Source: Gammaproteobacteria bacterium
GTDB taxonomy: Bacteria > Pseudomonadota > Gammaproteobacteria > Steroidobacterales > Woeseiaceae
Reading direction: 5' to 3'
Length of the DNA stretch: 64,000 nt
Assembly (NCBI GenBank): GCA_029862045.1
Contig: JAOTYE010000009.1
Location: 39,314-103,313, forward strand
Part shown: piece by piece, positions 3,676-37,549 of the stretch
How the letters are laid out: every line of letters starts with the position of its first letter
Position numbering within the stretch: position 1 is the stretch's first letter
Notes under the pieces: generated by a model
Seen by the model: only the letters and a program-made list of their open reading frames with translations
The model's database searches: none
Told to the model about the DNA's origin: nothing
Translations under genes and position numbers: made by a program

Positions 3676-3946
3676 ATTCTCTTCTCCAATTGCCTCAGAA
3701 TCGCTTAGAATCGAATTACTCTCACTATTATGCTCATTGGGCTGTGGATGAGAGCTAACTCCCTGATAAGCGGGTGTAGTTCAACGGTAGAACATCAGCT
3801 TCCCAATCGGAGTCGCTGAGTTGGCCAGCTCTCTAACCGCTTCATTTCCGTGGTCCTGTGACCACCGGTTTCAACGAGTTAGATCACCCGAAAGTAATCA
3901 ACTGAGTCTCGTAGGCCTTCTGAGTATGCTCAGTTTTACGCTCACT
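3676..3946 (+). repeat. R1: tRNA-Gly upstream arm + tRNA 5' half + conserved ~140-nt non-tRNA tail
   Basis: 3676-3769 aligns with 15745-15837, the region upstream of the intact tRNA. 3770-3806 equals tRNA nt 1-37 with 1 mismatch. 3807-3946 aligns with 13963-14103 of R2. Internal hairpins are GTGGTC-CTGT-GACCAC (3850-3865) and CTGAG-TATG-CTCAG followed by TTTT (3920-3937). Confidence 0.85.
3770..3806 (+). pseudogene. tRNA-Gly(CCC) 5' half (acceptor 5' strand, D arm, anticodon stem 5' strand and loop); no T arm or 3' acceptor strand follows
   Basis: gcgggtgtagttcaacggtagaacatcagcttcccaa differs at one position from nt 1-37 of the intact gene at 15838. Confidence 0.85.
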
Positions 3947-4005
3947 ACTGAATCGGCTTCGTAGAAAATACGGCCGATGGTTTGTCCATACGCCGGCATT
4001 TTGCG

Positions 4006-5517
4006 TCAGAACCGCAGGTTGAGCGACGAAATAAACGCTTCCCTGGACCCAGTGAAACCATTGTATTCGGCGCTCCACGATAACCGTTTGCTGATGTCCC
4101 AGTTGAAGCCCGTGACGATGTTCCAGTGATCCGTGTTCTGCTCGTCGATTCGGTAATCGAGCGTCAGGCCTTCGAGAGCTGGAATCTCGTCTCCCGGAAA
4201 CGTAAAGGATCCGTCGATGGTGACGTCGGAGTCCAGGTAGTTGCCGCCCACGAACACCGCCATGCTGCCGAGGTTGCCCAGATCAAGAAGTCTGCCAATC
4301 CGCGGCGTCACGGTAAGTGAGGACCCGTCCGCGACCCTGTCCTTGGGCTCAGCATAGGTCGCCGTTGCGGGAATCGTTACGAACCAGCCTTTCCAGCCGC
4401 CGGCGAGTAGCGCACCGTAACCCCATGTTTCAACATCGACGTCTGCGCGCACTGGGAAAGAAATGATCTGGTTTTCGAGCGCATCGCAAAGCGGTGGGCG
4501 CACGAGTGGCCTCGAGCAGTCCGTGCCGCGTCGATCGAGTATCAGGTTGCCGTCGAGAAATACGTCGAGATCGACGGAGCCATCGACTTTGCCATACATA
4601 CCAAAAACATTGAGAAACGGAAACAGCCAGGCATCGACCTTCAACTGAAACGACCTGGTGTCGGAGTTTGAATTCTCGAAGGATACGAAGTCGAACCGTT
4701 CGAGGTCGCCGCCGTTGAACCCAACGGACAGGTCGGTAAGGTCCAGGTCCTGGTTGATATCCACATAGGTCACGCCGAGCCCAATGGGTAAGGGCAGGTC
4801 GTAGCCCTTGTCGACAACCTTCTGGCCGAGAAACGGTAGCGTCCGCGTCCAGACCCGCGGCGTATCCCTGCCCTGGCGATCGCTGCGTGGGCCGCCGATG
4901 TTCGGGATGCTTGCAGTCGATATGCCGGTATCTGTCAGTTCCGTGTTGACACTGACCCGCGCGAGCCGCAGGTTTGCCCCGAGTTCTGCTCCGGACTGTG
5001 ACCGCACCCTGACCGACATCTCGTCGCTGATCCACTGCGCGACGCCTTCGGCTTCTCCGGCAACCGACACGAGATCATAAGACGGTATCCAGCGATTCCT
5101 CTTGAAGCTTTTCACCGTGTCGACGTCATTAAGCACAGCCAGTAATTGCACCTCACTAGCGCCGACGCCCAGACCGAAAGCGAATTCGTCGATATTTACA
5201 AAAGTTCGCGTGTTGTCAGTGCGGTCATACAAGATTCCGGTGGTGTCCCCGCGGCCAATCAGGCCGATCAGGAGGTCTGTGCCTGTTGCGACGATGTAGC
5301 CGGGGGATGACTCGATCTCTCTTTCGACATCCGGGTCCTCAGCTTTGAACGCCGCTAGCGCTTCATTGGAAGCCGTTGTCACTTCCTGACGAACCTGTTC
5401 GCGCTCTTCTACCGGGATGCTGCTGCAGCCAGCCAGGCTGAAGACAGCGAGTACAGCTATTGCGCTGAGACACACGCGGTCTCGAATTATCCTGGCCGTC
5501 ACTATTGTTTGCTCCAT
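4006..5517 (-). CDS. hypothetical outer-membrane-associated lipoprotein
   Basis: 503-aa ORF with lipoprotein signal ...LAVFSLAGC|SS. The C-terminal half is rich in alternating beta-strand-like segments and ends ...SSLNLRF (aromatic terminal residue typical of OMPs). Transcribed divergently from the TetR gene. Confidence 0.7.
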   Translation of the reverse strand: MEQTIVTARIIRDRVCLSAIAVLAVFSLAGCSSIPVEEREQVRQEVTTASNEALAAFKAEDPDVEREIESSPGYIVATGTDLLIGLIGRGDTTGILYDRTDNTRTFVNIDEFAFGLGVGASEVQLLAVLNDVDTVKSFKRNRWIPSYDLVSVAGEAEGVAQWISDEMSVRVRSQSGAELGANLRLARVSVNTELTDTGISTASIPNIGGPRSDRQGRDTPRVWTRTLPFLGQKVVDKGYDLPLPIGLGVTYVDINQDLDLTDLSVGFNGGDLERFDFVSFENSNSDTRSFQLKVDAWLFPFLNVFGMYGKVDGSVDLDVFLDGNLILDRRGTDCSRPLVRPPLCDALENQIISFPVRADVDVETWGYGALLAGGWKGWFVTIPATATYAEPKDRVADGSSLTVTPRIGRLLDLGNLGSMAVFVGGNYLDSDVTIDGSFTFPGDEIPALEGLTLDYRIDEQNTDHWNIVTGFNWDISKRLSWSAEYNGFTGSREAFISSLNLRF

Positions 5518-5533
5518 TGCCTACCTTGACGCG

Positions 5534-5569
5534 GTGACATGGTGTCACTAGAGTGTGACGCAATGTCAC
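5534..5569. promoter_or_regulatory. two palindromic candidate TetR operators in the divergent promoter region
   Basis: GTGACAtggTGTCAC (5534-5548) and GTGACgcaatGTCAC (5555-5569) lie between the lipoprotein start (5517) and the TetR start (5539 or 5563). Confidence 0.5.
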
Positions 5570-6237
5570 CTAGTCGGTCAAACAAACGCCCGGTCATTCA
5601 GCCGGAGCCAATAGCCCGGATCGGCACGGCAGAGCGCACTCGTGCCGAAATACTGGATGCGGCGTTCGAGTTCCTGTGGTCTCGCCCGTTTCGGGACATG
5701 ACGGTGAACGTCCTGATGGCGATGATTCCGCAAGGCCGGACCGCCTTTTACAAGTATTTCGATGATATCCATGGGGTCATGGCGGAGATGCTGAAGAGAC
5801 TGGAGGCCGAGATTCTCGAAGGTGCCAGCGCATGGCTCTCAGACGACGGCGATCCGGTCGCCTTGTTATACAAAAGTCTCGCGGCCGAGGTTCAAATCGG
5901 CTATCGCTATGGGCCGTTCATCAAGGCTGTCAGCGATGCCGCGGGGACCAATGCAGAGGTGGAAGACGAGTGGAACTGGCTCCTGGATCGGTTTGACGAT
6001 GCCGTGAGCGAGCGTATTGCTGCGGACCAGGAACTCGGCTTGATCGAAGCCTTCGATCCCGGCCCGGTCGCGACCGCGCTAAATCGGGTCGATGCCGCTA
6101 TGTATATTCGGCAATTTGGACACAGGCCGCGCAGCCGGCCGCAGCCGGTGGTGGATGCAATCACGCGCGTCTGGATCTCCACGCTGTACGGTCAAAGGTG
6201 GGCGACGAGCCGCAGATCCACACTGGTTCGAGAGTAG
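5539..6237 (+). CDS. TetR/AcrR family transcriptional regulator
   Basis: N-terminal HTH region RTRAEILDAAFEFLWSRPFRDMTVNVLMAMIPQGRTAFYKYF. The start is ATG 5539 or ATG 5563. Confidence 0.85.
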   Translation: MVSLECDAMSPSRSNKRPVIQPEPIARIGTAERTRAEILDAAFEFLWSRPFRDMTVNVLMAMIPQGRTAFYKYFDDIHGVMAEMLKRLEAEILEGASAWLSDDGDPVALLYKSLAAEVQIGYRYGPFIKAVSDAAGTNAEVEDEWNWLLDRFDDAVSERIAADQELGLIEAFDPGPVATALNRVDAAMYIRQFGHRPRSRPQPVVDAITRVWISTLYGQRWATSRRSTLVRE

Positions 6238-6337
6238 GTACCGTATTCGCACCAGCCAGGGGGGCGGAACGGCAGTAGCGCAGGCAGTTTTGGGTCTCAC
6301 TACAAAAATGAAGAAACGATAAGGGGAGGAGCGAACA

Positions 6338-8284
6338 ATGACGGGAATGATCTACAGGCTAATAACGACCTCGGCTGTTCTGTGCCTTGCGGCGTCAACT
6401 TTCACCACGAGCGTAGCCGTCGCACAGACCCATGCCGGTCAGCCCGAGAGTGTGGTGGACCCGGTAAAGATCTACTCGCCGTACGTCGAGCGCACGGCCT
6501 TGGATTCGAATCTCGCTGAGGGTGTCTACTGGGGCGACACGCATTTGCATACATCGTACTCGACCGACGCCGGCATGATGGGCAACAAACTCGGTCCGGA
6601 AGAGGCTTATCGTTTCGCCCGAGGCGAGGAAGTCCTGACGTCACATGGGGAGCGGGTTCGCCTGATCCGTCCACTGGATTTCTTGGTTGTGGCGGATCAT
6701 GCCGAAAACCTTGGCCTGGCGCCTTTTATTGCGGAGTCGCACCCCGAGCTGTTAAAGAGCGAGTGGGGCAAGGCGGTTCACGACATGGTCAAGGCCGGCG
6801 ATTCCCGAGGCGCCTTCCAGAGATGGCTCAGCGACGCGGTCACCCCCGGGACGGACCCGATCAACAACCCGAAGATGGCCCGGACAGTATGGGACCGCGA
6901 GATCGAATTCGCTGACAAGTACAACGAACCCGGCCGCTTCACTGCGCTGATCGGGTTCGAGTGGACGTCCATCTCGACCCGCGAAAACCCGGGCAACCTG
7001 CACCGCGTGGTGATCTTCAAGGATGGCCGCGACAAGGCCTCGCAGGTAGTGCCGTTCTCCACGTTCGACTCCTACGACCCGGAGAAACTGTGGGACTACA
7101 TGGCGGACTACGAGGAGAAGACCGGCGGCAGCATGCTGGCGATTGCGCACAACGGCAACGTGTCCAATGGGCAGATGTTTGCCACCGAACGCCTGAATGG
7201 CCGACCGATCAAGCGGGAATATGCGGAGATGCGCGCCCGCTTCGAGCCACTGTACGAAGTGACGCAGATCAAGGGCGACGGTGAGGCGCACCCGTTCCTG
7301 TCACCGAACGATGAATTCGCTGACTACGGTACCTGGGACAAGTCCGACATCGTTGGCATGAATCCCAAGGAAGACTGGATGCTGAAGCATGAATACGCTC
7401 GCTCGGCGTTGCAGATCGGCATGCAACTCGAAGAAAAGCTGGGCGTCAATCCCTACAAATTCGGCATGATCGGTAGCACCGACGCCCACACGTCGTTGGC
7501 GACGACCCGCGAAGAAAATTTCTACGGCAAAGCAGCGCACCTCGAGCCCGAAGCGAACCGCTGGGAACATACAATTATTGCGTCTCTGTCCGGTAACCCG
7601 GAATTTTCCAGCTATTCCTACGAATCGATTGGCGCCGGTCTCGCGGCGGTCTGGGCGCGTGAGAACACGCGTGAAGGCATCTTCAATGCAATGATTCGGA
7701 AGGAAACCTACGCCACGACGGGTACCCGCATCGTCGTTCGGTTCTTCGGCGGCTGGGACTACGAGAACGACGAGGTATATCGTCCCGACGTGATATCCAT
7801 CGGTTATCGCAAGGGGGTGCCGATGGGCGGTGACCTGGCGGTAAGACCTGAGGGCAAGGCAGCGCCGACATTCATGGTGGGGGCACTGAAAGACTCGTGG
7901 TCCGGCAACCTGGATCGCATCCAGATCATCAAGGGTTGGATCGACAGCGACGGCGAGCGCCAGGAGCGCGTATACGATGTGGCTGTATCCGATGGTCGGA
8001 CCATTGACGCCGACGGCCGCTGCCGAACCCCGGTCGGCGATACCGTTGATGTGGCAGACGCAAGCTATCTCAACACGATCGGCGACGCGGAATTGCGCGC
8101 CGTCTGGACCGACCCGGACTTCAATCCCGAGCACCGGGCCTTTTACTACGCGCGAGTGCTGGAAATTCCAACGCCCACCTGGCAGGCCTATGACGCGAAG
8201 TTTTACGAGGTCGAGATGCCCGATACCGTAATGATGAAGGGCCAGGAGCGAGCCTACACGTCACCGATCTGGTACACGCCCTAG
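6338..8284 (+). CDS. DUF3604 domain-containing secreted protein (paralogue 1)
   Basis: RBS AGGGGAGGAG and a signal peptide. Motif [16 protein letters not shown] and C-terminus [12 protein letters not shown] are typical of DUF3604 as I recall it. Confidence 0.85.
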
Positions 8285-8310
8285 ACAACAACAAGAGCGA
8301 GGAGCGAATC

Positions 8311-10257
8311 ATGACTGGAACCAACTCGAGAGCGATAACGGCCCTGGCCGTCATGTGCCTGGCGTCTGCGTTTTTGCCAGGGAACGCGCGCGCACAAATC
8401 AACCCTGAGGTGACGGAAGAGGATGCCGCCAAGCTATACCCGGGGAAAACGTATTCTCCTTATGCACAGCGGGCGTTCCCCAGCAACGTTTACTGGGGCG
8501 AGACGCATCTGCATACGGGGTTGTCGCTAGACGCGGGCTTGTTCGGCAACACGCTGACACCCGATGACGCGTACCGATTCGCCCGTGGCGAGGAGGTCAA
8601 ATCGTCGACCGGCCTGCCCGTCAAGCTCGGCCGGCCGCTTGACTTTCTCGTTGTCGCCGATCATTCCGACGCAATGGGTCTCGCCCTCGACATCAAGAAG
8701 GGGACTCCGAATATCCTGGCAGATCCGACAGGCAAGCGTTGGCACGAGGCCTTCATGAAGGGCGGCCAGGAAGCGGGCAAGGCTGCGTTTGAACTGATCC
8801 AGGCATTTGCCCAGTTCAAACTGCCCGAGAAGATGGTGGCGGATTATTCGCCCGGATCCGCACCGTTTGCCACGGTGTGGGATACGATCGTCGACTCAGC
8901 GGAAAAATACAACGAACCCGGTCGATTTACGGCGTTCATCGGCTACGAGTGGACTGCGGTTCCCCAGGGTAACAACCTGCATCGAAACGTCATTCTCCGC
9001 GACGGTGGTGACCGGGCCCGGCAGATCCTGCCGTTGACCACACAGCCGCCGATCGGGACGACCGATCCGCTGGATCTGTACCATTGGCTCGAGAACTACG
9101 AATCGAAGACCGGTGGACAGGCTCTTGCTATCGCGCACAACGGTAACCTGTCGAACGGCTGGTTGTTCCCGATGGACAAGCGCTATTCGGGTGGCCGGGT
9201 CAACAAGGAGTATGTGGCGCTGCGAGCTGAGTGGGAGCCGCTTTACGAGGTTACGCAGATGAAGGGCGATGGGGAAACGCATCCGGCCCTTTCTCTTAAC
9301 GATGAATTCGCCGACTACGGTACCTGGGACAAGGGCAACCTCGACCTGTCGGCCCTGAAGAAGCCCGAGATGCTCGCGGGCGAATATGCCCGTGAGGCAC
9401 TGAAGAACGGCTTGGTGCTCGAAGAGAAGTTCGGCACGAATCCCTACAAGTTCGGCATGGTCGGTGCGACCGACAGTCACACGGCGCTGGCAACAGCAGA
9501 GGAAGAGAACTTCTTCAGCAAGTCCGTGAGCGTAGAACCGTCGCCGACCCGAATCGAGCATCCATTTATCAAGTCCGATCTCGCCGCTATCGAGGGAGAT
9601 GAAATCGTCGGTGCCGGCTACCAGGGCATCTGGGCGACCGAGAACACGCGCGAGGCGCTGTTCGATGCGATGGAGCGAAAGGAAACCTATGCGACGACCG
9701 GCCCACGCATGGTCGTGCGATTCTTCGGCGGCTGGGATTACACGGACGATGACCTGCGTAGCCGCGCGCCCGCATTCCGCGGCTATGAGAAAGGTGTGCC
9801 GATGGGCGGTGACCTGACGATGGCGCCTCAGGGAAAGGTGCCGACGTTCATGGTGTACGCGCTCCGCGATCCAATTGGCGCGAATCTTGATCGTATTCAG
9901 GTCGTCAAAGGCTGGGTCGACGATCGGGGTAAGACCCAGGAGAAGGTCTACGATGTTGCCTGGTCGGGTGACCGGAGTCCCGGCGCGGATGGCAAGCTGC
10001 CGGCTGTCGGCAATACGGTCGACATCGAGGCGGCCAACTGGACCAACACGATCGGCGCATCAGAGCTGGCAACGGTCTGGACCGATCCGGACTTCGATGC
10101 GGATCAGCGAGCGTTTTACTACGCGCGCGTGCTCGAAATCCCGACGCCACGCTGGGTGCTCTATGACAAGGTCCGCTTCGGCATCGAACTACCCGAACGT
10201 GCGGAATTGATTCACCAGGAGCGCGCCTACACGTCACCTATCTGGTACACGCCCTAG
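8311..10257 (+). CDS. DUF3604 domain-containing secreted protein (paralogue 2)
   Basis: Same length (648 aa) as the upstream gene. Motif [16 protein letters not shown] and an identical C-terminus [12 protein letters not shown]. The two are collinear over the full length. Confidence 0.85.
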
Positions 10258-10291
10258 GCAAGAAGCACATCATCAACGACGGAGAGGCGCA

Positions 10292-11734
10292 ATGGAGATT
10301 TTAAGAAGCTTGGCATTAACGCTGCTCCTCAGCGTTTTCGGCCAAGCGGCCCTGGCCCAGGACAAGCCGAACATCGTCCTGGTCTTCATGGACAACTTCG
10401 GCTGGGGCGAACCCGGGTTCAACGGCGGCGGCATCATTCGTGGCGCCGCGACACCGCAGATTGACTCACTGGCCGCCGAGGGGCTTCGGCTCACCAACTT
10501 CAACGTGGAGGTCCAGTGCACGCCGTCGCGCTCGACATTGATGACGGGCCGCTATGCGATCCGCAGCGGCAACGGCACGGTACCGCTGGGCGAAGGAGTT
10601 TATGGCCTCGTGCAGTGGGAAGTGACCATGGCGGAGATGCTCGCTGACGCCGGGTATGCCACCGGCATGTTCGGCAAGTGGCATCTCGGTCGCACGGAAG
10701 GCCGCTTCCCGACCGACCAGGGTTTCGACGAGTGGTACGGCATCCCCAACTCGACCGACGAATCGGTTTATTCAGAGTTGCAGGATTTCGCCGAAAGCGG
10801 TGTTGCGGAATCCTGGGTCATGGAAGGCAAGAAGGGCAGCGCGCCGAAAAAGGTACGTCCCTATCGGCTGGACTACCGGCCGCTGATCGATCGCGACCTG
10901 ACCGACAAAGCGATCAGCTTCATGCGCCGCCAGGCGAAGGCCGACAAGCCGTTCTTCGTTTACCTGCCGTACACGGCCACGCATTTTCCGGCGATCCCGC
11001 ACCCCGACTTCGACGGCAAATCCGGCAACGGGCCGTGGGGCGACATGCTGATGCAGATCGACAGCTACGTTGGCGAGTTGCTCGAGACGATCGATGACCT
11101 CGGGTTGGCAGACGACACGATCTTCATCTTCACGGCGGACAATGGCCCCGAGGCGCTGAGCGCCGGCGAAACATCGATGACCGTGGAAACGGCCCTGCAT
11201 GGTTCCGCCGGCCCGTGGCGCTCGACGCTGTTCACAGGGTATGAGGGCGCCCTTCGCGTACCGTTTGCCGTCCGGTGGCCCGATAAGATTGAAGCGGGTC
11301 GGGTGAGCGATGAGATCGTGCATGCGATGGACCTCTTCCCGACACTGGCCGGGATCGCTGGTGGCAAGGTGCCGTTGGACCGAGTCATCGACGGCATCGA
11401 CATGTCCGGTTTCTTCCTTGGTAAAACGCAGCAATCAGGCAGAGAGGGCTTCATCGTCTACATGGGTAATGACGTGTTTGGCGTGAAGTGGCGCGACTGG
11501 AAACTCCATTTCAAGGAGCAGACCGGGTGGAACGGCGTGCTGCGCGAGTACACGATGCCCCGCCTCTACAACCTGATCAACGATCCCCAGGAACGCGACA
11601 ACGTGCTTTTCCCACACACGTGGGTGCCGAAGGCGGCTTTGCCGCAGTTGCAGGAACACGTCCTTTCGCTCAGGAAGAATCCGCCGATCCCGAGCGGAGC
11701 GCCCGACCCCTACAAGCCGGCCGGAAAGAAGTGA
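10292..11734 (+). CDS. arylsulfatase (formylglycine-dependent sulfatase family)
   Basis: Signal peptide. Sulfatase signature CTPSRSTLMTGRY (C-x-P-x-R) follows NIVLVFMDNFGWGEPG. Confidence 0.9.
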   Translation: MEILRSLALTLLLSVFGQAALAQDKPNIVLVFMDNFGWGEPGFNGGGIIRGAATPQIDSLAAEGLRLTNFNVEVQCTPSRSTLMTGRYAIRSGNGTVPLGEGVYGLVQWEVTMAEMLADAGYATGMFGKWHLGRTEGRFPTDQGFDEWYGIPNSTDESVYSELQDFAESGVAESWVMEGKKGSAPKKVRPYRLDYRPLIDRDLTDKAISFMRRQAKADKPFFVYLPYTATHFPAIPHPDFDGKSGNGPWGDMLMQIDSYVGELLETIDDLGLADDTIFIFTADNGPEALSAGETSMTVETALHGSAGPWRSTLFTGYEGALRVPFAVRWPDKIEAGRVSDEIVHAMDLFPTLAGIAGGKVPLDRVIDGIDMSGFFLGKTQQSGREGFIVYMGNDVFGVKWRDWKLHFKEQTGWNGVLREYTMPRLYNLINDPQERDNVLFPHTWVPKAALPQLQEHVLSLRKNPPIPSGAPDPYKPAGKK

Positions 11735-11739
11735 ACGGG

Positions 11740-12690
11740 ATGCTGTTTCGGGCGTTCGCGCTCGCCGGCCTTTGCCTGCTGTTCCTGTACCCGCTGGCGG
11801 CTCAGGCGCAACTGTCCGGCCACAATACCCGGGGCGACTATGGACTCATGTCAGGTACGCAAGTGCCCGTGGGTACCTATGGGGTGGGAATGTACTATGA
11901 CTTCGCGGCCGACACGCTGCGCGATAGAAACGGGAACTCATTTCCGGCCATTTCCGACGGCGGCTCGGTGGACATACGGGCCGCTGTCGCGGGTCTGATA
12001 AAAACGACAGACAGAAAATTGTTCGGCGGCAACTACGGGTTTGGAATCTATGTCGCTGCGACCAACAATGCCGTGGAACTACCCGCTCTGCAAACCGACA
12101 CCGAGACCAGCACCGGCCTTGCGGACACCTACATTCAACCCCTGATACTTGGTTGGACAACGAAACGCGCTGATTTCATGGCTGGATTGGGGGTTTATGC
12201 GCCTACTGGGCGTTACGACCCCGATGCGGACGATAATCGCGGGCTGGGCATGTGGAGCTACGAGGCGTTCGCAGGAACGACGGTCTATTTCGACGAGGCA
12301 CGCACGTGGCACTTCGCGGGAACAGCGTTCTACGAAACCCATGGCAAGAAAGAAGACACGGACATTCGCGTCGGCGATATTCTTACCATCGAAGGAGGCT
12401 TCGGCAAATCGTTTATGGACGGTGCCGCAAGCGCCGGTCTGGCCTATTACGCGCAGTGGAAAGTCAGCAGGGACGACTTCGGCGTAACGCCGCCCGGTGG
12501 ACCTTTCCTTGGTAAACACGAGGTGTATGGTGTCGGTGCGGAACTCACGTTGCCTCTGGCCAGCAAGTCCAAGTTATACGGCTTTGCGAATCTTCGTTAC
12601 TTTTGGGAAACAGGGGTAAAAACCACGCTGGAGGGCGAGACCCTTCTGCTAACGCTAAGCTTTCCCTTCCCCAGCATTCCTCTGCAATGA
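11740..12690 (+). CDS. outer-membrane beta-barrel channel, MetA-pathway/'transporter' family-like (tentative)
   Basis: True start is ATG 11740 (MLFRAFALAGLCLLFLYPLAAQAQ signal peptide). The ORF-track start at 11488 overlaps the sulfatase gene in another frame. Alternating beta-strand pattern. Confidence 0.65.
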   Translation: MLFRAFALAGLCLLFLYPLAAQAQLSGHNTRGDYGLMSGTQVPVGTYGVGMYYDFAADTLRDRNGNSFPAISDGGSVDIRAAVAGLIKTTDRKLFGGNYGFGIYVAATNNAVELPALQTDTETSTGLADTYIQPLILGWTTKRADFMAGLGVYAPTGRYDPDADDNRGLGMWSYEAFAGTTVYFDEARTWHFAGTAFYETHGKKEDTDIRVGDILTIEGGFGKSFMDGAASAGLAYYAQWKVSRDDFGVTPPGGPFLGKHEVYGVGAELTLPLASKSKLYGFANLRYFWETGVKTTLEGETLLLTLSFPFPSIPLQ

Positions 12691-12771
12691 GGCAACTGTC
12701 GGCGGCCGAATGTTAAACGCAGAAAAGAAACATGCCGGCCTATTATCGAAACTTCCCCAGGAGGACCTGCA

Positions 12772-13080
12772 ATGAAATTCAAACAATGGCTGCTTGGTGC
12801 GGCACTATGCTCCGTATTCAGTTTTGCGGCGACCGCCGCAGATGCACCCGACAACGGACTGGCCGTACTTGGCTGGAGCGAAGCGACCCTCGTTGCGGAT
12901 CGAGATGACCGTAAGGACCGGCGGGACGAGCGTGGTCGCGCAGATGAACGCCAGGAGAAGCGCGACTGCCGCCAGGAAGAAGGCCGCGTCGGCAAAGACA
13001 AGCGCGAATGCAAGCAGGATGAGGTGCGCGACGGCGTCCGGGGCCAAAAAGATGACGACGACAAGGAAGAGGACGCCTAA
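12772..13080 (+). CDS. small secreted, extremely charged (D/E/R/K-rich) protein of unknown function
   Basis: Strong RBS CAGGAGG 7 nt upstream. Clear signal peptide MKFKQWLLGAALCSVFSFAATAADA. The mature part is a low-complexity charged sequence with two Cys. Confidence 0.55.
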   Translation: MKFKQWLLGAALCSVFSFAATAADAPDNGLAVLGWSEATLVADRDDRKDRRDERGRADERQEKRDCRQEEGRVGKDKRECKQDEVRDGVRGQKDDDDKEEDA

Positions 13081-13159
13081 AGCGGACCGGGAGTGGTGGA
13101 CGGCCGGCAGTCTCGCAAAAGGCTGTGGAAACACCAAAAGGGTCTCTTGAAGCAGCCAT

Positions 13160-13807
13160 ATGAAAGTTGAACAGAACAAGAATGCCGCTGCCCCTCTGAT
13201 AACCGGCGTCCTGGTTCTCGCCGTTTCATACGCTGTGCTCCGTTATCACGTCGTGGGACCGGTGCCGTGGAAGGACTTTCCGTTTTTCATCCTGAACAAG
13301 GGGTTTTCGCTCGCGGCGTTTGTCTTGATTGCATGCAATTTCGGCTTCGGCCCTCTGAGAAACATCGGAGTCCGTGTACCGGAGAGCTGGTTGGCCGCCC
13401 GCAAGGCCGTCGGTATGACCGGGTTTCTGCTGGTTCTTATTCACGCGCTGATGAGCTTCTTGCTGTTCAAACCGGCGGTATACGGCAACTTCTTTTCCCA
13501 GGACGGGACTTTGACCTTATTCGCCGGTCTGAGCATGCTCACAGGGGTCCTGGCGTTTGTGGTCCTCTGGGCCTACAACCTGAGTTTCCAGACATTCCTG
13601 CGCGAAGACAAAGCCTTCATTTCACTCATCACATCGCGCCGATTTCTGCTCGTCGCATTCATACTTGGCGGTGCCCACCTGTTGTTCATGGGCTACGAGG
13701 GTTGGATGAAGCCCGGGCGCTGGCACGGCGGACTGCCGCCTATCAGTCTGGTCGCTTTCGCTGTTTTCGCGATGGCCTACATCGTCAACCTGTTTGGCCG
13801 TGAATGA
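13160..13807 (+). CDS. integral membrane protein, ferric-reductase/YedZ(MsrQ)-like topology (tentative)
   Basis: 215 aa with about six hydrophobic helices. Conserved-looking His residues in LVLIHALMSF and GGAHLLFMG. Confidence 0.6.
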   Translation: MKVEQNKNAAAPLITGVLVLAVSYAVLRYHVVGPVPWKDFPFFILNKGFSLAAFVLIACNFGFGPLRNIGVRVPESWLAARKAVGMTGFLLVLIHALMSFLLFKPAVYGNFFSQDGTLTLFAGLSMLTGVLAFVVLWAYNLSFQTFLREDKAFISLITSRRFLLVAFILGGAHLLFMGYEGWMKPGRWHGGLPPISLVAFAVFAMAYIVNLFGRE

Positions 13808-13834
13808 TCGGCAAACTCTTGCCAACGCGACGAT

Positions 13835-14103
13835 CCCTTCTCCGTAGCCGAGAGATTGGTTTAGAATCCGAGTACTCTCACTTTTATGCTCAGCCAGACC
13901 TGAGTGAGACGTAACTCCCTGATATGCGGGTGTCGTTCAATGGTAGGACATCAGCTTCCCAATCGGAGTCGCTGAGTTGGGCGCTCGTATAACTGCTTGA
14001 TTATCGTGGTGCTGTGACCACCGGTTTCAACGAGTTAGATCACCCGAAAGTAACCAACTGAGTCCTGTGGACTTTCTGAGTATGCTCAGTTGTACGCTCA
14101 CTT
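13835..14103 (+). repeat. R2: second copy of the tRNA-Gly upstream arm + tRNA 5' half + conserved non-tRNA tail
   Basis: 13861-13925 aligns with the region upstream of the intact tRNA. 13926-13962 equals tRNA nt 1-37 with 3 mismatches. 13963-14103 aligns block-wise with the R1 tail, including a 59-nt block with only 2 differences. Confidence 0.85.
13926..13962 (+). pseudogene. tRNA-Gly(CCC) 5' half, second truncated copy
   Basis: gcgggtgtcgttcaatggtaggacatcagcttcccaa. The D stem is still pairable (one G-U). No T arm or 3' acceptor strand follows. Confidence 0.85.
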
Positions 14104-14193
14104 CTTGGATGGTCGATGACGAGACGCTTCGCGAATGATCAGCACCCACACGAGCACGAACGCAGCCAATGGGATAATGACAAACCATTCCAT
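14098..14193 (-). CDS. possible 31-aa hydrophobic peptide (below the ORF-track cutoff)
   Basis: ATG 14193 lies 1 nt after the stop of the 75-aa ORF (TGAcATG). Product MEWFVIIPLAAFVLVWVLIIREASRHRPSKK is one TM helix with a basic tail. Its stop lies inside the right end of R2. Confidence 0.25.
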   Translation of the reverse strand: MEWFVIIPLAAFVLVWVLIIREASRHRPSKK

Positions 14194-14194
14194 G

Positions 14195-14422
14195 TCAGTT
14201 TTCCTCGAGATCGTCAATGAGACGATACGCAATGCGGTTAATTTGGAAGATACCGCTGGTGACTACTATAGCAGCAACGCCGGCAGCAGCGACGAGGATC
14301 GGGTTTGCTTTGGTGTAAGACTGCGCCAGCCAACCAAGCAAGGATGCATCGATCACAGCGAGAAGGCCGAACGGAACTTTCAACCATCCGATTTCTTCCT
14401 TGATTCTGTTGACTCTCGCCAT
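14195..14422 (-). CDS. small two-TM membrane protein, unknown function
   Basis: 75-aa ORF with two hydrophobic segments, in an AT-richer stretch. No recognisable motif. Confidence 0.45.
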   Translation of the reverse strand: MARVNRIKEEIGWLKVPFGLLAVIDASLLGWLAQSYTKANPILVAAAGVAAIVVTSGIFQINRIAYRLIDDLEEN

Positions 14423-14512
14423 GTCACAGTACCCGCTGCCTGCCTTCCTTCATTTTTGATGGATTGAACACGGGCGTCTATGTCGATTTGCGGTCAATTC
14501 CTTCCGATTCCC

Positions 14513-15706
14513 TCAGTTCAGCAGGTCAACACGGCCTGATTTGAGCCAGTCCGACTGCTCCGTTCTCTCGCTGCGATCAGGCGGTCCTGCCGGTTGAGGA
14601 GGCGCGGCAGGCCATGCCTCATCGGTGCCGATGACCCTTCGTACACGAATACCGTCTGCGTTGACGTTCCAGACCAACAGGTCGTCCGCGAGGGTTAACG
14701 GTCCATCATAGGTCTTGCGAATCTCTTCGAGGGTGCCCGGTGCGACATTGAAGTCGGCGAAGTTGTGGTAAGCAATCGCCATGCGAGGCTGCAGTCGCGA
14801 GAAGATCTTGCCGCATGACGACGGCGGTGTGTGAAGTACCGTCGAGACAATTCGGGCTCGCTCAGGATCATATTTTTTCAGGTCAATGAGTTGCTGCACC
14901 GTGAAATAGCATTCGTGAATCAGCAGATCGGCATCGCCGGATTCAGCAAGAAACCACTTGTTGGGGACAGTATCCCCTGAGTAAACGAACTTCTTGCCAT
15001 TCCACTCCAGGCTGTAGCTGACGGCCCCGTCGATCGTATGCACGGCAGGCCACGCCTTGATCTTTACGCCATTCTGTTCATAGATGACGTGGCTCTTGCG
15101 GTAGTCAAACTCCGTCACTTCTATGTGGCCGCCCGCCGACGGCATGTTGCCTCTGCGGCCTGTCAGGTCCCAGGTGAACATCTCACGCATACGGTCGATG
15201 GCGTATTTCGTCCCGGTCTCCGGTTTAAGGCCACTAGGACCCCAGACCCGCAGTGGCCCAGTCCGGTTCGAGACCCAGCCGCCTATGAACATGGCATCCA
15301 GATCGCCGATATGGTCGACGTGCAAATGACTGATGAATATCTTGTCCAGGTAGGTGTAAGGAATTTCCAGCGCTCCGAGATTCGCAAGCGACCCGGTGCC
15401 GATATCGAAAAGGAACTTATCCCCGTTATCCAACTCGACCAGCCACGATGCAGATGCCTGCGAGCGGCGAAAGTTCGGTGTACCTGTTCCCAATGCAATC
15501 ACACGCATCTCGTCCGAACCGAGTGGTTCGGTATTCGGGAAATAATTGTCCCTCGAAGCTGTCTCTTCCTCCGCAGCCATCGCAGCATCGACGGCTGCGG
15601 ACATCACCGTCTTTGGCATGTCGCCGATGCCGGAGATAGCGACCGCCAATGCGCTGATTAGCACGATCACGGGTATTGTCGTTCTTAGTGAAGGAGTGAC
15701 TCTCAT
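14513..15706 (-). CDS. MBL-fold metallo-hydrolase, exported
   Basis: N-terminal signal/anchor. Metallo-beta-lactamase motif SHLHVDHIGD (HxHxDH). RNase Z-like N-terminal block RVIALGTGTP. Confidence 0.85.
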   Translation of the reverse strand: MRVTPSLRTTIPVIVLISALAVAISGIGDMPKTVMSAAVDAAMAAEEETASRDNYFPNTEPLGSDEMRVIALGTGTPNFRRSQASASWLVELDNGDKFLFDIGTGSLANLGALEIPYTYLDKIFISHLHVDHIGDLDAMFIGGWVSNRTGPLRVWGPSGLKPETGTKYAIDRMREMFTWDLTGRRGNMPSAGGHIEVTEFDYRKSHVIYEQNGVKIKAWPAVHTIDGAVSYSLEWNGKKFVYSGDTVPNKWFLAESGDADLLIHECYFTVQQLIDLKKYDPERARIVSTVLHTPPSSCGKIFSRLQPRMAIAYHNFADFNVAPGTLEEIRKTYDGPLTLADDLLVWNVNADGIRVRRVIGTDEAWPAAPPQPAGPPDRSERTEQSDWLKSGRVDLLN

Positions 15707-15744
15707 CTTTCTTCCTCAGGGGGAGGGTGCTCTCGCACAGCCCA

Positions 15745-15837
15745 ATCTCTTCTCCAATCGGCTCAGAATAGCTTAGAATCCGAGTACTCTCACTTTTATG
15801 CTCAGCCAAGCCCAAGTGAGACGTAACCCCCTGATTT
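15745..15837 (+). repeat. R3: upstream arm shared with R1 and R2, here joined to the intact tRNA-Gly gene
   Basis: aatctcttctccaatcggctcagaatagcttagaatccgagtactctcacttttatgctcagcc... aligns with 3676-3769 and 13835-13925. Confidence 0.8.
15773..15799 (+). promoter_or_regulatory. promoter-like hexamers upstream of tRNA-Gly (also present in R1 and R2)
   Basis: TTAGAA, 15 nt, TTTTAT (TATTAT in R1). The spacing is suboptimal, so this is only a candidate. Confidence 0.3.
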
Positions 15838-15911
15838 GCGGGTGTAGTTCAATGGTAGAACATCAGCTTCCCAAGCTGAGAATGAGGGTTCGATTCCCTT
15901 CACCCGCTCCA
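15838..15911 (+). tRNA. tRNA-Gly (anticodon CCC), CCA encoded
   Basis: 74 nt. Acceptor stem GCGGGUG/CACCCGC, D stem GUUC/GAAC, anticodon stem UCAGC/GCUGA with loop UUCCCAA, T arm GAGGG-UUCGAUU-CCCUU, discriminator U then CCA. Confidence 0.95.
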
Positions 15912-35090: not shown

Positions 35091-36320
35091 GTGAACCTTG
35101 TCTTTCGGCTGGCGTGGCGCAACCTGTGGCGGCATCCACGACGCACCTGGCTAACGACTGGTGCGATGGTGTTTTCGAACACACTGCTCGTGTTCATGAT
35201 CGCGCTGCAATTCGGCATGTACGATCTCATGATCGACAACACACTGCAGGCGTTTACGGGACATTTGCAGATTCAGGCGCCGGGATACAAAGACGATCAG
35301 AAGATGCGCCAGACCGTGGCCGATATCGTGCCGCTGGCCGAGTCATTGCGCGCCGAATTGACGACGGCAAGCATCGCAGCACGCGGCACCGCTTTCGCGC
35401 TGGTTTCGAGCGAGGAGCGCAGTTATGGCATCGCCGTATTCGGCGTCGAGCCTGAGTTCGAATCAAACGTCTCGACGATTCCCGGCCTGATCTCGAAAGG
35501 GCGCTTTCTCGGCGCCAGCGATGCGGCCGAGATTATCATCGGCGCGGCGCTGGCGCGAAATCTGCGCGTGGATCTCGGCGATGAGCTGACTTTACTCGGC
35601 AGCGGTCGCGACGGTTCGTTCGCTGCCGCCGTCGTCAATATCGTTGGGATATTCGACAGCGGTGTCGCCGACTTCGATCGCAGCATGACCGAGATACCCC
35701 TTGGCTTGTTTCAGGACGTCTTTTACATGAATGGCAGCGGCCATCATGTCGTGTTCGACGCGGGTGGTATCGACGGCGTTGCCGAATTGCAGAGCCGCGT
35801 CGGATCGCTGTTACCGCCCGGACAGGATCTCGTTGTACACGACTGGGACGCCCTGCAGCCGGGACTCAAACAGGCTATTAAAGCGGATATGAGCAGCGCC
35901 TTCTTCATGTACGGAATTCTCGTCATTCTCGTCGCGTTCAGTGTGCTCAACACACAATTGATGTCGGTGCTCGAACGCACGCATGAGTTCGGCATTGTCA
36001 TGTCACTGGGTCTGACGCCCGGACGACTCGGACGCCTCGTGTTGCTGGAGACCGCGATCATGGGGGCACTCGGACTCATACTCGGCGCGATTCTTGGTGG
36101 GGTCATAACCTTCTGGCTTGGCATTAGAGGTTTCGCCTATCCCGGCATGGAAGAACTGGCCGCCAAATTCAATCTGCCGGCGCGTTTCTTCCCGCAGGTA
36201 TCTGCGATGACCCTGCTGATAGGCCCGGCGGTCGTGTTTCTGTTTACGCTACTTGCGGCGGTCTACCCGGCGTTGCGGCTACACCGATTGCACCCCGTCG
36301 AAGCGATGCGGGCCGTCTGA
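35091..36320 (+). CDS. ABC transporter permease, FtsX/LolCE-like (copy 1)
   Basis: GTG start. N-terminus LAWRNLWRHPRRT. Large periplasmic loop followed by a C-terminal three-TM FtsX domain. 409 aa. Confidence 0.85.
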   Translation: MNLVFRLAWRNLWRHPRRTWLTTGAMVFSNTLLVFMIALQFGMYDLMIDNTLQAFTGHLQIQAPGYKDDQKMRQTVADIVPLAESLRAELTTASIAARGTAFALVSSEERSYGIAVFGVEPEFESNVSTIPGLISKGRFLGASDAAEIIIGAALARNLRVDLGDELTLLGSGRDGSFAAAVVNIVGIFDSGVADFDRSMTEIPLGLFQDVFYMNGSGHHVVFDAGGIDGVAELQSRVGSLLPPGQDLVVHDWDALQPGLKQAIKADMSSAFFMYGILVILVAFSVLNTQLMSVLERTHEFGIVMSLGLTPGRLGRLVLLETAIMGALGLILGAILGGVITFWLGIRGFAYPGMEELAAKFNLPARFFPQVSAMTLLIGPAVVFLFTLLAAVYPALRLHRLHPVEAMRAV

Positions 36321-37549
36321 TGCACAGGCTTGAAATACTTTTCCGGCTGGCCTGGCGCAACCTGTGGCGCAATCACCGCCGCACGCTGATCATGCTCATG
36401 GCCGTCGTGCTGGGCACCTGGGCCATGATTTTCATGACCGCGCTGATGCGCGGCATGGTTACCGACGTGGTCAAGGACGGCATCAGCGCGTTGCCGGGCC
36501 ATGTGCAGGTGCATCACCCCGACTATCGTGACGATCCAAGCGTAGCGAACCTGATTGCTGTCAGCGATGCGGATCTGTCCGCGCGATTCAACGCGGCCGG
36601 GTTCGTCAAGTGGGCGACGCGCGTCCGTGTACCTGCCGTCATCACAAGTGAATACGATTCTCGCGGCGTGACCTTGCTCGGTGTCGATCCCGAGTACGAA
36701 AGAGACCTGACGTTCGTCGATTACGATAGTGTAAGCGGCAGGTTCCTGGAGTCCGCCGACGACTCGGGCATAGTGATTGGTAAGAAGCTGGCTGAGACGC
36801 TTAACACCAAAGTGGGTAAGCGCATTGTGCTGATGAGCCAGGACCCCGACAACGACATCGCGGACCGCGGGTTCCGCGTTGTCGGGATGTTCGAGGCGAA
36901 TATCAAAGCCTTTGAAGAGAACTACGTCTTCGCTGGTAAAACCACGGTGCAGAAGATGTTGCGTATCGGTGATCAGGTTTCCGAACTCGTTGTTCTTGGC
37001 GGTGACTACCGCGACGTAGAAGCGGAGTACAACAAGACCGTCGAACTCATCGATGGTAGCGGCGAGGTCAAGCGTTGGTTCGAACTCGATCCTTACCTTG
37101 GCTCCATGCTCGGCGTCATGGACGGTTTCGTACTGGTCTGGATCATCGTAATCTTCCTGGCGCTGTCATTCGGCCTCGTCAATACATTGGTCATGGCGGT
37201 GTTCGAGCGTGTACGCGAAATCGGACTAATGCTGGCGCTCGGCATGCGGCCTATTAATATCCTGGGCCAGATCGTCGTCGAATCGTCGCTGCTCCTCGCA
37301 ATCGGCCTGGCCATCGGTACCGGACTATCGTGGGCGAGCGTGCAGCCGATCAAGGACGGCATCGACATATCGATTGTCGGCGATGGCCTGGACATGTGGG
37401 GCATGTCGAGTGTTCTTTATCCTGAGCTCCTGCTTTCCGACGTCATTCTGGCGAATGTCGTCGTTCTTGTACTCGGGTTTCTTGCGAGCCTGTCGCCGGC
37501 GTGGCGCGCCGCAAACTACGAACCGATCGAAGCCATAACAAAGGTCTGA
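36320..37549 (+). CDS. ABC transporter permease, FtsX/LolCE-like (copy 2)
   Basis: ATG overlaps the upstream TGA. N-terminus LAWRNLWRNHRRT. Same length (409 aa) and architecture as copy 1. Confidence 0.85.
   Translation: MHRLEILFRLAWRNLWRNHRRTLIMLMAVVLGTWAMIFMTALMRGMVTDVVKDGISALPGHVQVHHPDYRDDPSVANLIAVSDADLSARFNAAGFVKWATRVRVPAVITSEYDSRGVTLLGVDPEYERDLTFVDYDSVSGRFLESADDSGIVIGKKLAETLNTKVGKRIVLMSQDPDNDIADRGFRVVGMFEANIKAFEENYVFAGKTTVQKMLRIGDQVSELVVLGGDYRDVEAEYNKTVELIDGSGEVKRWFELDPYLGSMLGVMDGFVLVWIIVIFLALSFGLVNTLVMAVFERVREIGLMLALGMRPINILGQIVVESSLLLAIGLAIGTGLSWASVQPIKDGIDISIVGDGLDMWGMSSVLYPELLLSDVILANVVVLVLGFLASLSPAWRAANYEPIEAITKV

Follow-up and report, generated by a model that had tools for sequence, protein, structure and literature searches.

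Results

Organization of the locus upstream of tRNA-Gly(CCC)

The window analysed here is a continuous stretch of DNA of 64,000 nt. What the first-pass annotation had described in it as a chimeric tRNA, named R1 (3676-3947, + strand), is one copy of a repeat of about 280 bp located between accessory-gene blocks upstream of tRNA-Gly. R1 is composed of a conserved upstream region, nucleotides 1-37 of tRNA-Gly(CCC) and a 140-nt non-tRNA tail; R1, a second copy R2 and the intact tRNA-Gly gene all lie on the + strand. The features of the array are as follows.

3676..3769 (+): left arm of R1 ("A-up"), about 95 nt homologous, in alignments, to the upstream regions of intact tRNA-Gly and of other modules
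3770..3806 (+): displaced 5' fragment of tRNA-Gly(CCC), nt 1-37, with the acceptor 5' strand, the D arm and the anticodon 5' stem
3800-3806 (+): anticodon loop TTCCCAA at the end of the tRNA fragment, putative crossover core and meeting point of all junction types
3807..3849 (+): segment B, junction-proximal tail, with TCGGAGTC, GCTGAG, a variable spacer (~3823-3833) and the palindrome left arm TAACCGCTTCA
3834..3881 (+): 48-nt imperfect palindrome, TAACCGCTTCA...GTGGTC-CTGT-GACCAC...TCAACGAGTTA (RNAalifold consensus, columns 65-112)
3850..3947 (+): segment C, conserved tail core with a sharp end at ...TACGCTCAC, which occurs also without any tRNA part
3948..13831 (no strand): cargo block 1, without recombinase in Pfam, NCBIfam and integrase motif scans
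4006-5517 (-): outer-membrane-type lipoprotein in cargo block 1 (Pfam/NCBIfam results)
13832..14103 (+): module R2, second full copy, with the left arm, tRNA nt 1-37 at 13926-13962, then B and C
14104..15743 (no strand): cargo block 2, small membrane proteins and an MBL-fold hydrolase
14513-15706 (-): the MBL-fold hydrolase
15744..15911 (+): conserved left arm (15744-15837) joined to the intact tRNA-Gly(CCC) gene (15838-15911)

The four-part anatomy that the first-pass annotation had assigned to R1 was borne out by the sequence itself, by the alignment of R1 with R2 (83% identity across 253 nt) and by the tail copies found elsewhere. Its upstream part aligns, as claimed, with the region upstream of the intact tRNA-Gly, and the conservation profile of 46 upstream regions begins at ...ATCTCTTCTC. 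The tRNA part exhibits a single mismatch with nt 1-37 of the intact gene, C for T at nt 16, and is followed by TCGGAGTC and GCTGAG as described. The hairpin GTGGTC-CTGT-GACCAC (3850-3865), which lies within the palindrome together with several rearrangement breakpoints, the hexamer CACCCG (3885-3890) and the hairpin CTGAG-TATG-CTCAG with TTTT (3920-3937), the last two in segment C, are likewise all present. The conserved unit starts at about 3676 and ends sharply at 3945-3947. The variable part of segment B corresponds to columns 52-64 of the module alignment, and a second sequence variant of this segment was found in L020, L026, L038 and L053. The "59-nt core" of the tail seems invariant owing to the closeness of R1 and R2; among copies not picked by the search key, 2-5 of the 22 central positions differ. 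R1 has neither a T arm nor a 3' acceptor strand, and ARAGORN identified just the intact gene as a tRNA.

The other genes of cargo block 1 code for a TetR regulator, two DUF3604 paralogues, a sulfatase, a MetA-pathway porin and small unknown proteins. Cargo block 2 shares 83.5% identity with the cargo located behind a different module type in L014. The TonB receptor, looked up from its first TTG start, gave no record. R2 is an internal array junction with an attP-like arrangement (P-O-P'), and 15744..15911 is the regenerated target at the array end, attR-like (P-O-B'). The word TACTCAC, downstream of the intact tRNA of the window, was rejected as a shared motif, being absent downstream of intact tRNAs in other genomes.

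Tandem 9-mers in the two arms of the module

The left arm of R1 carries two tandem 9-mers, TACTCTCAC (3717-3725) and TATGCTCAT (3729-3737), and segment C carries two more, TATGCTCAG (3925-3933) and TACGCTCAC (3937-3945). They share the consensus TA(C/T)(T/G)CTCA(C/G), with one tandem pair per arm, and the two pairs are 196 and 220 nt apart in R1 as in R2, for a background rate of 0.02 matches per 280 nt. In the att-site reading discussed below, these pairs would be arm-type sites for protein binding. Enriched GAGT words were also considered as arm sites and were abandoned in favour of the 9-mer pairs, since these words are unconserved across copies.

The first-pass annotation had described promoter-like and terminator-like sites in these two arms. 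TTAGAA (3705-3710), the 15-nt spacer and TATTAT (3726-3731) are indeed located where claimed; neither the promoter-like nor the terminator-like site passes a simple consensus scan, and one repeated 9-mer, TATGCTCA(G), accounts for both the "promoter -10" and the "terminator hairpin", each being a copy of it. In the att-site reading, transcripts that start at the displaced tRNA promoter may be kept out of the cargo by the weak hairpin and T-run with which the tail ends on its outer side.

The module forms co-oriented arrays in uncultured sediment Gammaproteobacteria

The homologue search proposed for the tail gave, with nhmmer, 72 copies in 45 contigs of uncultured sediment Gammaproteobacteria. 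All 72 significant plus-strand copies are co-oriented within contigs, the sole other match being a weak palindromic self-overlap, and this, together with the similarity of R1 and R2, is far beyond chance. The copies are spaced by 0.6-10 kb within a contig, with up to 4 modules in 9.5 kb (L053) and 3 in 13.6 kb (L047) in the densest arrays, and module identities range from 83 to 95%. The intact tRNA-Gly(CCC), where present, is co-oriented with the modules and is the last element in six of six independent loci (window, L012, L020, L024, L036, L042), all of which carry the 5' fragment upstream of the intact gene. Every tail-only copy has a co-oriented gene upstream of it, and such copies directly follow a gene stop codon.

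The cargo is variable. We found 48 distinct right flanks among the 65 copies with a complete right end, and one cargo can be located behind differing left parts (L047 compared with L017, L021 with L013, the window with L056 and with L014). Toxin-antitoxin cassettes recur across the arrays, an identical one having three different following flanks in L015, L036 and L049, and the cargo units are small. In the strain variant L056, segment B and most of C are deleted and the cargo is kept. Recurring tRNA-derived repeats thus punctuate variable cargo beside a tRNA gene, with shuffling among related contigs, as in flexible islands. No clean empty site and no circular form were recovered, and searches of phage, plasmid and viral-contig collections with tail, junction and left-arm words as queries showed no module.

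A constant junction at the anticodon loop joins interchangeable arms

In all 31 standard modules the identity with the tRNA stops after CCCAA. The end of the fragment at the anticodon loop corresponds to one of the known crossover locations of integrases, the other being the T loop. Other right arms are attached at the same loop, CCCAA being joined to GCGGTG... in L012 and CCCAAGCTGA to CAACGC... in L030, and in L040 an alternative left arm, a toxin-antitoxin operon, is joined at ...TCCG to TTTCCCAAT. The left arms of L017 and L030 keep of the tRNA the anticodon stem-loop alone; these two loci also share a short similarity just left of the core, which may be a dispersed repeat, TTCGAATGTCCGC, found also in L010 and, inverted, elsewhere in L030. 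In L020 the upstream flank of the module is species-specific and the intact tRNA, 2 kb downstream, bears the conserved left arm, as expected for the attL and attR of one insertion.

A further left-arm variant bears a 106-nt insert in the D-loop, and modules of this type are unable to rebuild a working tRNA. The insert contains no ORF, and as a structured RNA it was rejected as well, with no Rfam match, z-scores of +0.3 to +1.8 against shuffles and no convincing covariation.

Across the 31 modules both arms and the 5' half are conserved, the latter being nearly invariant, and the spacer columns 52-64 are not, a pattern that suits att sites in current use and not scars in decay. When related contigs are compared, some breakpoints fall outside the anticodon loop, in the palindrome, the D-loop region or the outer end of segment C, so homologous or illegitimate recombination between modules contributes too.

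Search for a structured RNA

The first-pass annotation had proposed that R1 is a new RNA gene of about 170 nt with a tRNA-like head. The covariation of the proposed helices in 31 distinct copies was 0.045 compared to 0.044 in shuffles, 143 of 500 shuffles reaching as high a score, with a power limited by the mean column identity of 89%; the RNAalifold covariation term was -0.08. Substitutions disrupt the proposed pairs no less often than they preserve them: of the 31 copies, 6 cannot form pair 82-95 and 7 cannot form pair 2-121. CACCCG, supposed to pair with the acceptor strand, persists in tail copies without the tRNA 5' half (L009, L013, L015/L036/L049). R1 matched no Rfam family, and Rfam searches of the window, both modules and related loci, at gathering and permissive thresholds, returned a sub-threshold tRNA match alone. 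The scores of the modules with the tRNA family RF00005, 22.9 (R1) and 20.1 bits, are below the gathering threshold of 29 and their cloverleaf is incomplete, which led us to reject them as tRNAs. A split or intron-containing tRNA was discarded in the same way, since a 3'-half query matched intact genes only and Rfam showed neither a group I intron nor any other match. The RNA-gene claim was therefore not upheld: there is no covariation, no Rfam family, and CACCCG is kept without the 5' half. The fallback of the same annotation, a recombination junction in an island array, is favoured by the evidence. A by-product RNA may be transcribed from the module.

Search for a recombinase

Pfam and motif scans of the 64-kb window, of 10 kb further to the left and of the arrays, about 250 kb of contigs in total, revealed no integrase or other recombinase within the islands. 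The 503-aa outer-membrane-like protein beside R1 was considered and rejected, having no Pfam/NCBIfam match, a lipoprotein signal and a C-terminal F. The sole integrase seen, in L017, is not the cognate enzyme: its homologues, 70-93% identical, have tRNA-Arg(ACG) as their neighbour and csrA and tRNA-Ser upstream, and a matching tRNA 3' fragment is present in L017. The putative recombinase presumably acts in trans, and the cargo units look like cassettes moved in trans.

Discussion

R1 as a probable att junction in a stack of cassettes

The module family, the co-oriented arrays terminated by a tRNA, the constant junction, the reshuffled cargo and the nil RNA covariation are direct observations. 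A constant anticodon-loop junction with interchangeable arms is characteristic of tyrosine-integrase att sites centred on the anticodon, here of the less common "5' tDNA fragment" type. We consider it probable that R1 is a recombination junction, an att site, in a stack of small integrative cassettes located 5' of tRNA-Gly(CCC). Most likely the module is both a landing site for site-specific insertion and the scar that such insertion leaves, and not a new RNA gene.

In such a mechanism, a circular element would carry an attP of about 280 bp, with a left arm formed by a copy of the tRNA upstream region and tRNA nt 1-30, a core formed by the 7-nt anticodon loop, and a right arm formed by the tail (segments B and C). 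A tyrosine-type recombinase would exchange strands with the chromosomal tRNA gene within its anticodon loop. Joined to the chromosomal 3' half, the element's left arm would then give a working tRNA gene with its own promoter, of which 15744-15911 would be the example in the window, and the displaced resident promoter and 5' half would stay fused to the right arm of the element, giving R1. With repeated insertions the older cassettes would be displaced to the left, separated from one another by complete attP-like modules such as R2. In this scheme the recombinase, the crossover position and the roles of the 9-mers and of the hairpin are all putative. Some observations count against the att model: R1, the leftmost module here, has an upstream arm of the conserved type and not an obviously native one, neither a cognate integrase nor a circular form nor a clean empty site was found, the viral, plasmid and phage collections searched lack the module, modules with the 106-nt D-loop insert could not restore the tRNA, and some breakpoints lie beyond the anticodon loop.

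The att model may be extended, tentatively and with less than even confidence, to a tRNA-anchored cassette platform analogous to integrons, of which the modules would be the recombination sites. Integrase-less units, down to about 1 kb and each with a complete attP, would be inserted, excised and reshuffled by an unlinked chromosomal or helper recombinase, and the internal modules would serve as landing pads. Since such internal modules would be non-essential and safe to land on, variants with the 106-nt D-loop insert could persist. Some of the smallest of these units consist of a toxin-antitoxin pair alone, and the attP would also encode the tRNA-Gly(CCC) promoter and 5' half.

Alternative explanations

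Three other explanations have been weighed. It is improbable, in our judgement, that the modules were shuffled without any dedicated recombinase, by a process in which a single ancient fusion made the module, RecA crossing-over between the direct repeats of about 280 bp loops out or re-inserts circles and swaps cargo, and the 5' halves are kept alike through gene conversion with the live tRNA gene. An integrase is seen nowhere, the breakpoints are scattered (tail-model position 61, D-loop region, end of C), and modules of this length with 83-95% identity are similar enough for homologous exchange. However, several unrelated left and right arms meet precisely at or beside the 7-nt anticodon loop, which requires repeated independent events at one short site; in L020 it is the intact tRNA, not the displaced fragment, that bears the conserved upstream arm, tandem 9-mers are conserved in both arms, and anticodon-centred integrase sites with a 5' fragment are an established class (PMC4383910). 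We regard as highly improbable an integron-like system whose attC-like site, a folded single strand present once per cassette, would be formed by the palindromic part of the tail. The 48-nt imperfect palindrome has bulged bases, and its terminal GTTAGAT agrees with GTTRRRY, the consensus of attC R', but the conservation extends 65 nt past GTTAGAT with no stop between G and TT, and the left (R'') box is in most copies merely ...TAAC instead of RYYYAAC. Small cassettes (0.6-7 kb), the recurrence of toxin-antitoxin pairs among them and the gene stop codon directly before tail-only copies speak for such a system; yet these copies are conserved despite missing the left arm of the palindrome, the constant junction is the anticodon loop and not the palindrome, and motif scans revealed no IntI-type integrase.

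Very unlikely, too, is a functional chimeric non-coding RNA, for which the tRNA promoter would drive the 170-nt transcript, with a cellular or element-related role, from modules that would be paralogous RNA genes. Its head would be made of an acceptor-like helix CGGGUG/CACCCG, a D arm and an enlarged anticodon arm. The proposed helices are formable in 94-98% of sequence-by-pair cells, but the mismatches pile up uncompensated and covariation stays at the shuffled level. The minimum-free-energy folds of R1 and R2 both contain the CGGGUG/CACCCG pairing, with z-scores of just -1.8 and -0.9, respectively, whereas CACCCG and the rest of segment C are conserved where the 5' half is entirely missing. 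The whole upstream region of a real tRNA gene and the nearly invariant 5' half are retained, the tail ends in a hairpin followed by a T-run, and a co-oriented gene always lies upstream of tail-only copies, all of which would suit a transcribed unit; against this, neither promoter nor terminator passes the consensus scans, a single DNA word recurs in both the "-10" and the hairpin, no Rfam family matches, a separate 3' half for a split tRNA is absent, and the L056 variant keeps its cargo with B and most of C deleted.

Significance and comparison with known systems

If the att reading is correct, part of the flexible genome in this lineage of uncultured sediment Gammaproteobacteria, which protein names suggest to be Woeseiaceae, is made of small cassettes stacked before one tRNA gene, at an att site unusually long and well conserved that replaces the promoter and 5' half of the tRNA rather than its 3' end. 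The module would then be a precise sequence marker for such cassettes in metagenomes, whose arrays would escape island finders demanding an integrase per unit. A trans-acting recombinase with a defined substrate of about 280 bp should exist, with possible practical use, and a tRNA-like "chimeric RNA gene" could arise as a by-product of integration.

The attP of lambda type has about 240 bp and arm-type sites on both arms. The module is similar in size and in having a short core between two arms, each with tandem direct repeats of one motif, and differs in that its left arm doubles as tRNA promoter and 5' half. CIMEs, as in the ICESt1/ICESt3 accretion, are att-flanked cargo without recombination genes of their own, which implies mobilisation by a related autonomous element. 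In the same way, the cargo here lies between functional-looking att sites and has no own recombination genes; unlike in CIMEs, the target is the 5' side of a tRNA and not the 3' end of a protein gene, and the arrays reach at least 4 units. No autonomous partner element was identified. With integron arrays the locus shares small co-oriented cassettes, including toxin-antitoxin pairs, and a conserved, partly palindromic element of about 100 nt after genes, whereas it has no IntI, a boundary that is not at GTTRRRY, a tRNA-gene anchor and cargo with its own promoters and mixed orientations.

In the Islander collection, a 5' fragment was found in 159 of 3919 tDNA islands and an anticodon-centred att site in 2083; by its configuration rule the 5' fragment lies upstream of the intact gene, and tandem arrays, known in the 5'-fragment class, are called only with an integrase per island (PMC4383910). 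As in these 5'-fragment islands, a co-oriented upstream tRNA fragment ends here at the anticodon loop and element sequence regenerates the gene (PMC4383910). Unlike them, the present units are very small (0.6-10 kb) and have no integrase of their own, and the repeat is more than a tRNA fragment, being a composite of promoter region, 5' half and 140-nt arm. Additive flexible islands punctuated by recurring tRNA-fragment repeats have also been described (PMC10872708). The arrays resemble these islands and those of tycheposons (PMC10872708; bioRxiv 10.1101/2020.12.28.424599) in that partial-tRNA repeats punctuate variable accessory cargo, successive insertions push older ones inward and content varies at the strain level. 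Tycheposons carry tyrosine recombinases, whereas no recombinase is linked to the present arrays; and the repeats of additive islands and tycheposons are short 3'-end fragments, such as the last 20 bp of tRNA-Lys, whereas the present repeat combines promoter, 5' half and a long conserved arm.

Anatomy of the R1 and R2 modules

R1 and R2 each join an upstream left arm and the tRNA-Gly(CCC) 5' half to a non-tRNA tail made of a junction-proximal segment B and a conserved core, segment C. The parts described for R1 at 3676-3946 in the first-pass annotation were all recovered in the window sequence at those positions. The region 5' of 3770 matches the region 5' of the intact tRNA gene, 3770-3806 corresponds to tRNA nucleotides 1-37 with a single mismatch, nucleotide 37 is followed by TCGGAGTC and then GCTGAG, and the tail of about 130 nt lacks both a T arm and a 3' acceptor strand.

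R1 and its surroundings (window positions)
3717-3737: 9-mer tandem pair, R1 upstream arm
3834-3881: 48-nt imperfect palindrome, R1 tail
3850-3865: hairpin, R1 tail
3885-3890: CACCCG hexamer, R1 tail
3920-3937: terminal CTGAG-TATG-CTCAG-TTTT of R1
3925-3945: 9-mer tandem pair, outer end of R1 tail
4006-5517, minus: outer-membrane-lipoprotein-like gene, convergent with R1, no family match
between R1 and R2 (cargo block 1): TetR regulator, two DUF3604 paralogues, sulfatase, porin
about 13832-14103: R2, second module copy, 83% identity to R1 over 253 nt
between R2 and the tRNA (cargo block 2): small membrane proteins, MBL-fold hydrolase
15838-15911: intact tRNA-Gly(CCC), sole tRNA gene of the window

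An Rfam search with R1 and R2 returned only sub-threshold tRNA matches of 22.9 and 20.1 bits (gathering score 29 bits), and the module belongs to no Rfam family. The 9-mer TA(C/T)(T/G)CTCA(C/G) forms two tandem pairs of the same orientation in both R1 and R2, and the repeats are spaced identically in the two, by 196 and 220 nt; its background outside the modules is 0.02 per 280 nt. Since the pairs lie in both arms, the "-10" box and "terminator hairpin" annotated earlier are copies of one repeated DNA word, and these words may be arm-type protein-binding sites. A simple promoter/terminator scan reported neither the proposed promoter nor the terminator hairpin, a weak negative because the scan overlooks the intact tRNA gene's own promoter as well.

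In cargo block 1 the DUF3604 paralogues stand in tandem (6338-8284 and 8311-10257; 648 aa each, DNA identity 72-78%), and DUF3604 genes are also recurrent cargo in contigs L012, L026, L027 and L035. The hydrolase of cargo block 2 (14513-15706, minus) matches NCBIfam NF041257 ("guanitoxin biosynthesis MBL fold metallo-hydrolase GntH") at 439 bits, over a cutoff of 333, and stands alone there, without other guanitoxin pathway genes nearby. Elsewhere in the window, two adjacent 409-aa paralogues (35091-36320 and 36320-37549) have a common N-terminal FRLAWRNLWR motif (repeat D10); they may be a pair of FtsX-type ABC permeases.

Modules form co-oriented arrays

Searches with a tail 22-mer and a tail 20-mer retrieved five MAG contigs of uncultured Gammaproteobacteria and 40 sediment-metagenome contigs, respectively, and a profile built from the collected contigs gave 72 tail copies, co-oriented within every contig; the lone minus-strand match is weak and reflects self-overlap of the palindrome. 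Conserved upstream region, tRNA 5' half and tail are all present in most copies. Modules are spaced 0.6-10 kb apart in arrays (four in 9.5 kb in L053, three in 13.6 kb in L047, three or four in L011), and every contig that includes an intact tRNA-Gly(CCC) has it in the module orientation and as the last element (window, L012, L020, L024, L036, L042). The module starts some 100 nt ahead of tRNA +1 and ends sharply at ...TA-NN-CTCAC, with 48 different sequences following the 65 copies that have a complete right end.

We found also a second module type. After AATGG, the D loop of its tRNA 5' half holds an insert with a constant length of 106 nt, and the D stem is degenerate. The insert is confined to modules, and it showed no Rfam match, no ORF and folding no better than shuffles. 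A module with this insert could not restore a functional tRNA, yet many different cargos stand behind modules of the type. A dispersed short word, TTCGAATGTCCGC(TTTC), occurs at several unrelated positions in both orientations, often within a hairpin, and is a possible REP-like repeat in the genomes concerned.

Further features of related contigs
L014 420-543; L015 117-240; L018 595-718; L023 3067-3190; L027 4923-5046; L039 1222-1345 and 2264-2387; L041 4918-5041; L051 5242-5365: D-loop-insert copies (tail-oriented coordinates)
L010 right flank of module, about 4880-4950 (oriented); L017 4075-4127; L030 2645-2696 and about 7270-7290: word TTCGAATGTCCGC(TTTC)
L012 3321-3358; L030 7218-7265 (oriented): tRNA-Gly(CCC) 5' fragments joined, at the anticodon loop or stem, to tails unrelated to B and C
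L009 (two, flanking a RelE/XRE pair); L013/L052; L015/L036/L049 (directly after the antitoxin stop codon): examples of tail copies without tRNA part
L009 739-2247 (oriented); L015, L036, L049; L023 2353-2948, 3421-3980 and 5807-6402; L039; L040 1817-2376: toxin-antitoxin cassettes
L056 2504-2564 (minus), equivalent to window 3770-3947: CCCAAT joined to ATGCTCAGTTTTACGCTCAC; right cargo the same, upstream arm and left flank different
L017 983-3850; L065 8899-11261; L066 8390-11243: highly conserved island integrase (70-93% identity among many Woeseiaceae-like genomes) with an Integrase_1-family gene before it

Different arms meet at the anticodon loop

R1 is probably the att junction of an element integrated into tDNA. 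In 31 of 31 distinct standard modules, tRNA identity ends after the anticodon loop, at CCCAA. Two 5' fragments carry tails unrelated to B and C, reading CCCAA/GCGGTGAACG in L012 and CCCAAGCTGA/CAACGC in L030, implying use of this site by other element families. Conversely, the B and C tail is found behind varied left sides: a toxin-antitoxin operon in L040 (joint ...TCCG/TTTCCCAAT), sequence keeping the anticodon stem-loop only in L017 and L030, a 5' half with the 106-nt insert in about a dozen copies, and a complete 5' half under species-specific upstream sequence in L014, L020, L025, L026 and L049. L020 has the conserved upstream arm 2 kb downstream, before the intact tRNA, the layout expected from a single insertion: attL would run from native flank through the core into an element arm, and attR from an element arm through the core into the native 3' half. 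Arms that can be swapped on either side of a single 7-nt core (the loop TTCCCAA) are the hallmark of site-specific recombination. Both site types are established classes: among the 3919 islands of Islander, att sites are anticodon-centred in 2083 and 5' fragments are displaced in 159, its configuration rule being that the 5' fragment must be upstream of the gene (PMC4383910).

The first-pass annotation had preferred to read the module as a transcription unit for an RNA of about 170 nt with a tRNA-like head, and the proposed helices can indeed form across 31 distinct full modules (acceptor-like helix in 95% of cells, hairpin in 94%, terminal hairpin in 96%; mean column identity 89%). Yet nothing in this set, whose power is limited because the copies are similar, favours selected structure: the covariation score was 0.045 against 0.044 in shuffles, with 143 of 500 shuffles reaching it, and pairs changed on both sides numbered 3 for 2.0 expected. 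The RNAalifold covariation term was -0.08, pair-breaking changes were frequent (pair 82-95 in 6/31, pair 2-121 in 7/31), and the folds of R1 and R2 were not unusually stable (z-scores -1.8 and -0.9). CACCCG and the remaining segment C are conserved in copies without any tRNA part, and L056, a strain variant of R1 itself, has CCCAAT directly abutting the final 20 nt of the tail, with the same cargo behind it. A query with the tRNA 3' half matched nothing but the intact genes, so that no separate half exists for a split tRNA. The annotated anatomy is retained and the fallback of a recombination junction in an island array is favoured; the new RNA gene is not supported, given the lack of covariation and the persistence of segment C without a tRNA part.

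Mobility of the cargo

Related contigs have one side of a module in common and the other side different. L047 and L017 have the right cargo in common and differ on the left, L021 matches L013/L052 at 97% identity only rightwards from tail-model position 61, and one and the same Gp49-like/XRE cassette, tail included, has a different flank behind it in each of L015, L036 and L049. Over 565 nt, R2 with its cargo shows 83.5% identity to a D-loop-insert module with its cargo in L014, and cassettes of HigBA and of RelE/XRE reappear across four or five arrays (protein identity 81-100%). Not every breakpoint falls at the anticodon loop, and several independent ones lie inside the 48-nt palindrome of the tail when related contigs are compared; homologous or illegitimate exchange between modules occurs too.

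The smallest array cassettes are toxin-antitoxin pairs (RelE-like/XRE, HigB/HigA, Gp49-like/XRE), with 81-100% protein identity between contigs; in some, a tail-only copy begins right after the antitoxin stop codon.

Search for a recombinase

No recombinase lies near R1 in the window, two motif scans of the window gave no tyrosine recombinase, and ten recombinase-sized ORFs in its remainder belong to ordinary housekeeping or transport families or have no match. The 10 kb to the left, covered by same-strain contigs, contain neither another module nor an integrase; the genes there are two TonB receptors, a TPR-sulfotransferase and an ABC transporter. Across about 250 kb of contigs with arrays there is one tyrosine integrase only, in L017. 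It was rejected as the cognate enzyme because its homologues (70-93% identity; named from Woeseia, Woeseiaceae and Lentisalinibacter) adjoin tRNA-Arg(ACG), downstream of csrA and tRNA-Ser, and a tRNA 3' fragment lies beside the integrase in L017. There the integrase abuts a truncated tRNA-Gly module, versus tRNA-Arg(ACG) in other genomes.

The cassettes have no integrase and are presumably moved in trans, which is at once the largest gap in the att-junction reading and its main point of novelty. It seems rather unlikely that the arrays are an integron-like platform for cassettes, anchored on the tRNA gene and dependent on an unlinked recombinase. An integron proper was ruled out, with no IntI and boundaries not at GTTRRRY.

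Comparison with known systems

Islander-type finders accept tandem arrays only if every unit has its own integrase (PMC4383910). Fragment repeats of tRNA-Lys recur in Methylophilaceae flexible islands (PMC10872708), and tycheposons show partial tRNAs and tandem insertions (bioRxiv 10.1101/2020.12.28.424599). The module array behaves as an additive flexible genomic island and the single module as an att junction; compared with tDNA-integrated elements and flexible islands, the units described here have no linked recombinase and are very small, the conserved unit is about 280 bp long, and R1-type modules use the tRNA 5' half with its promoter.
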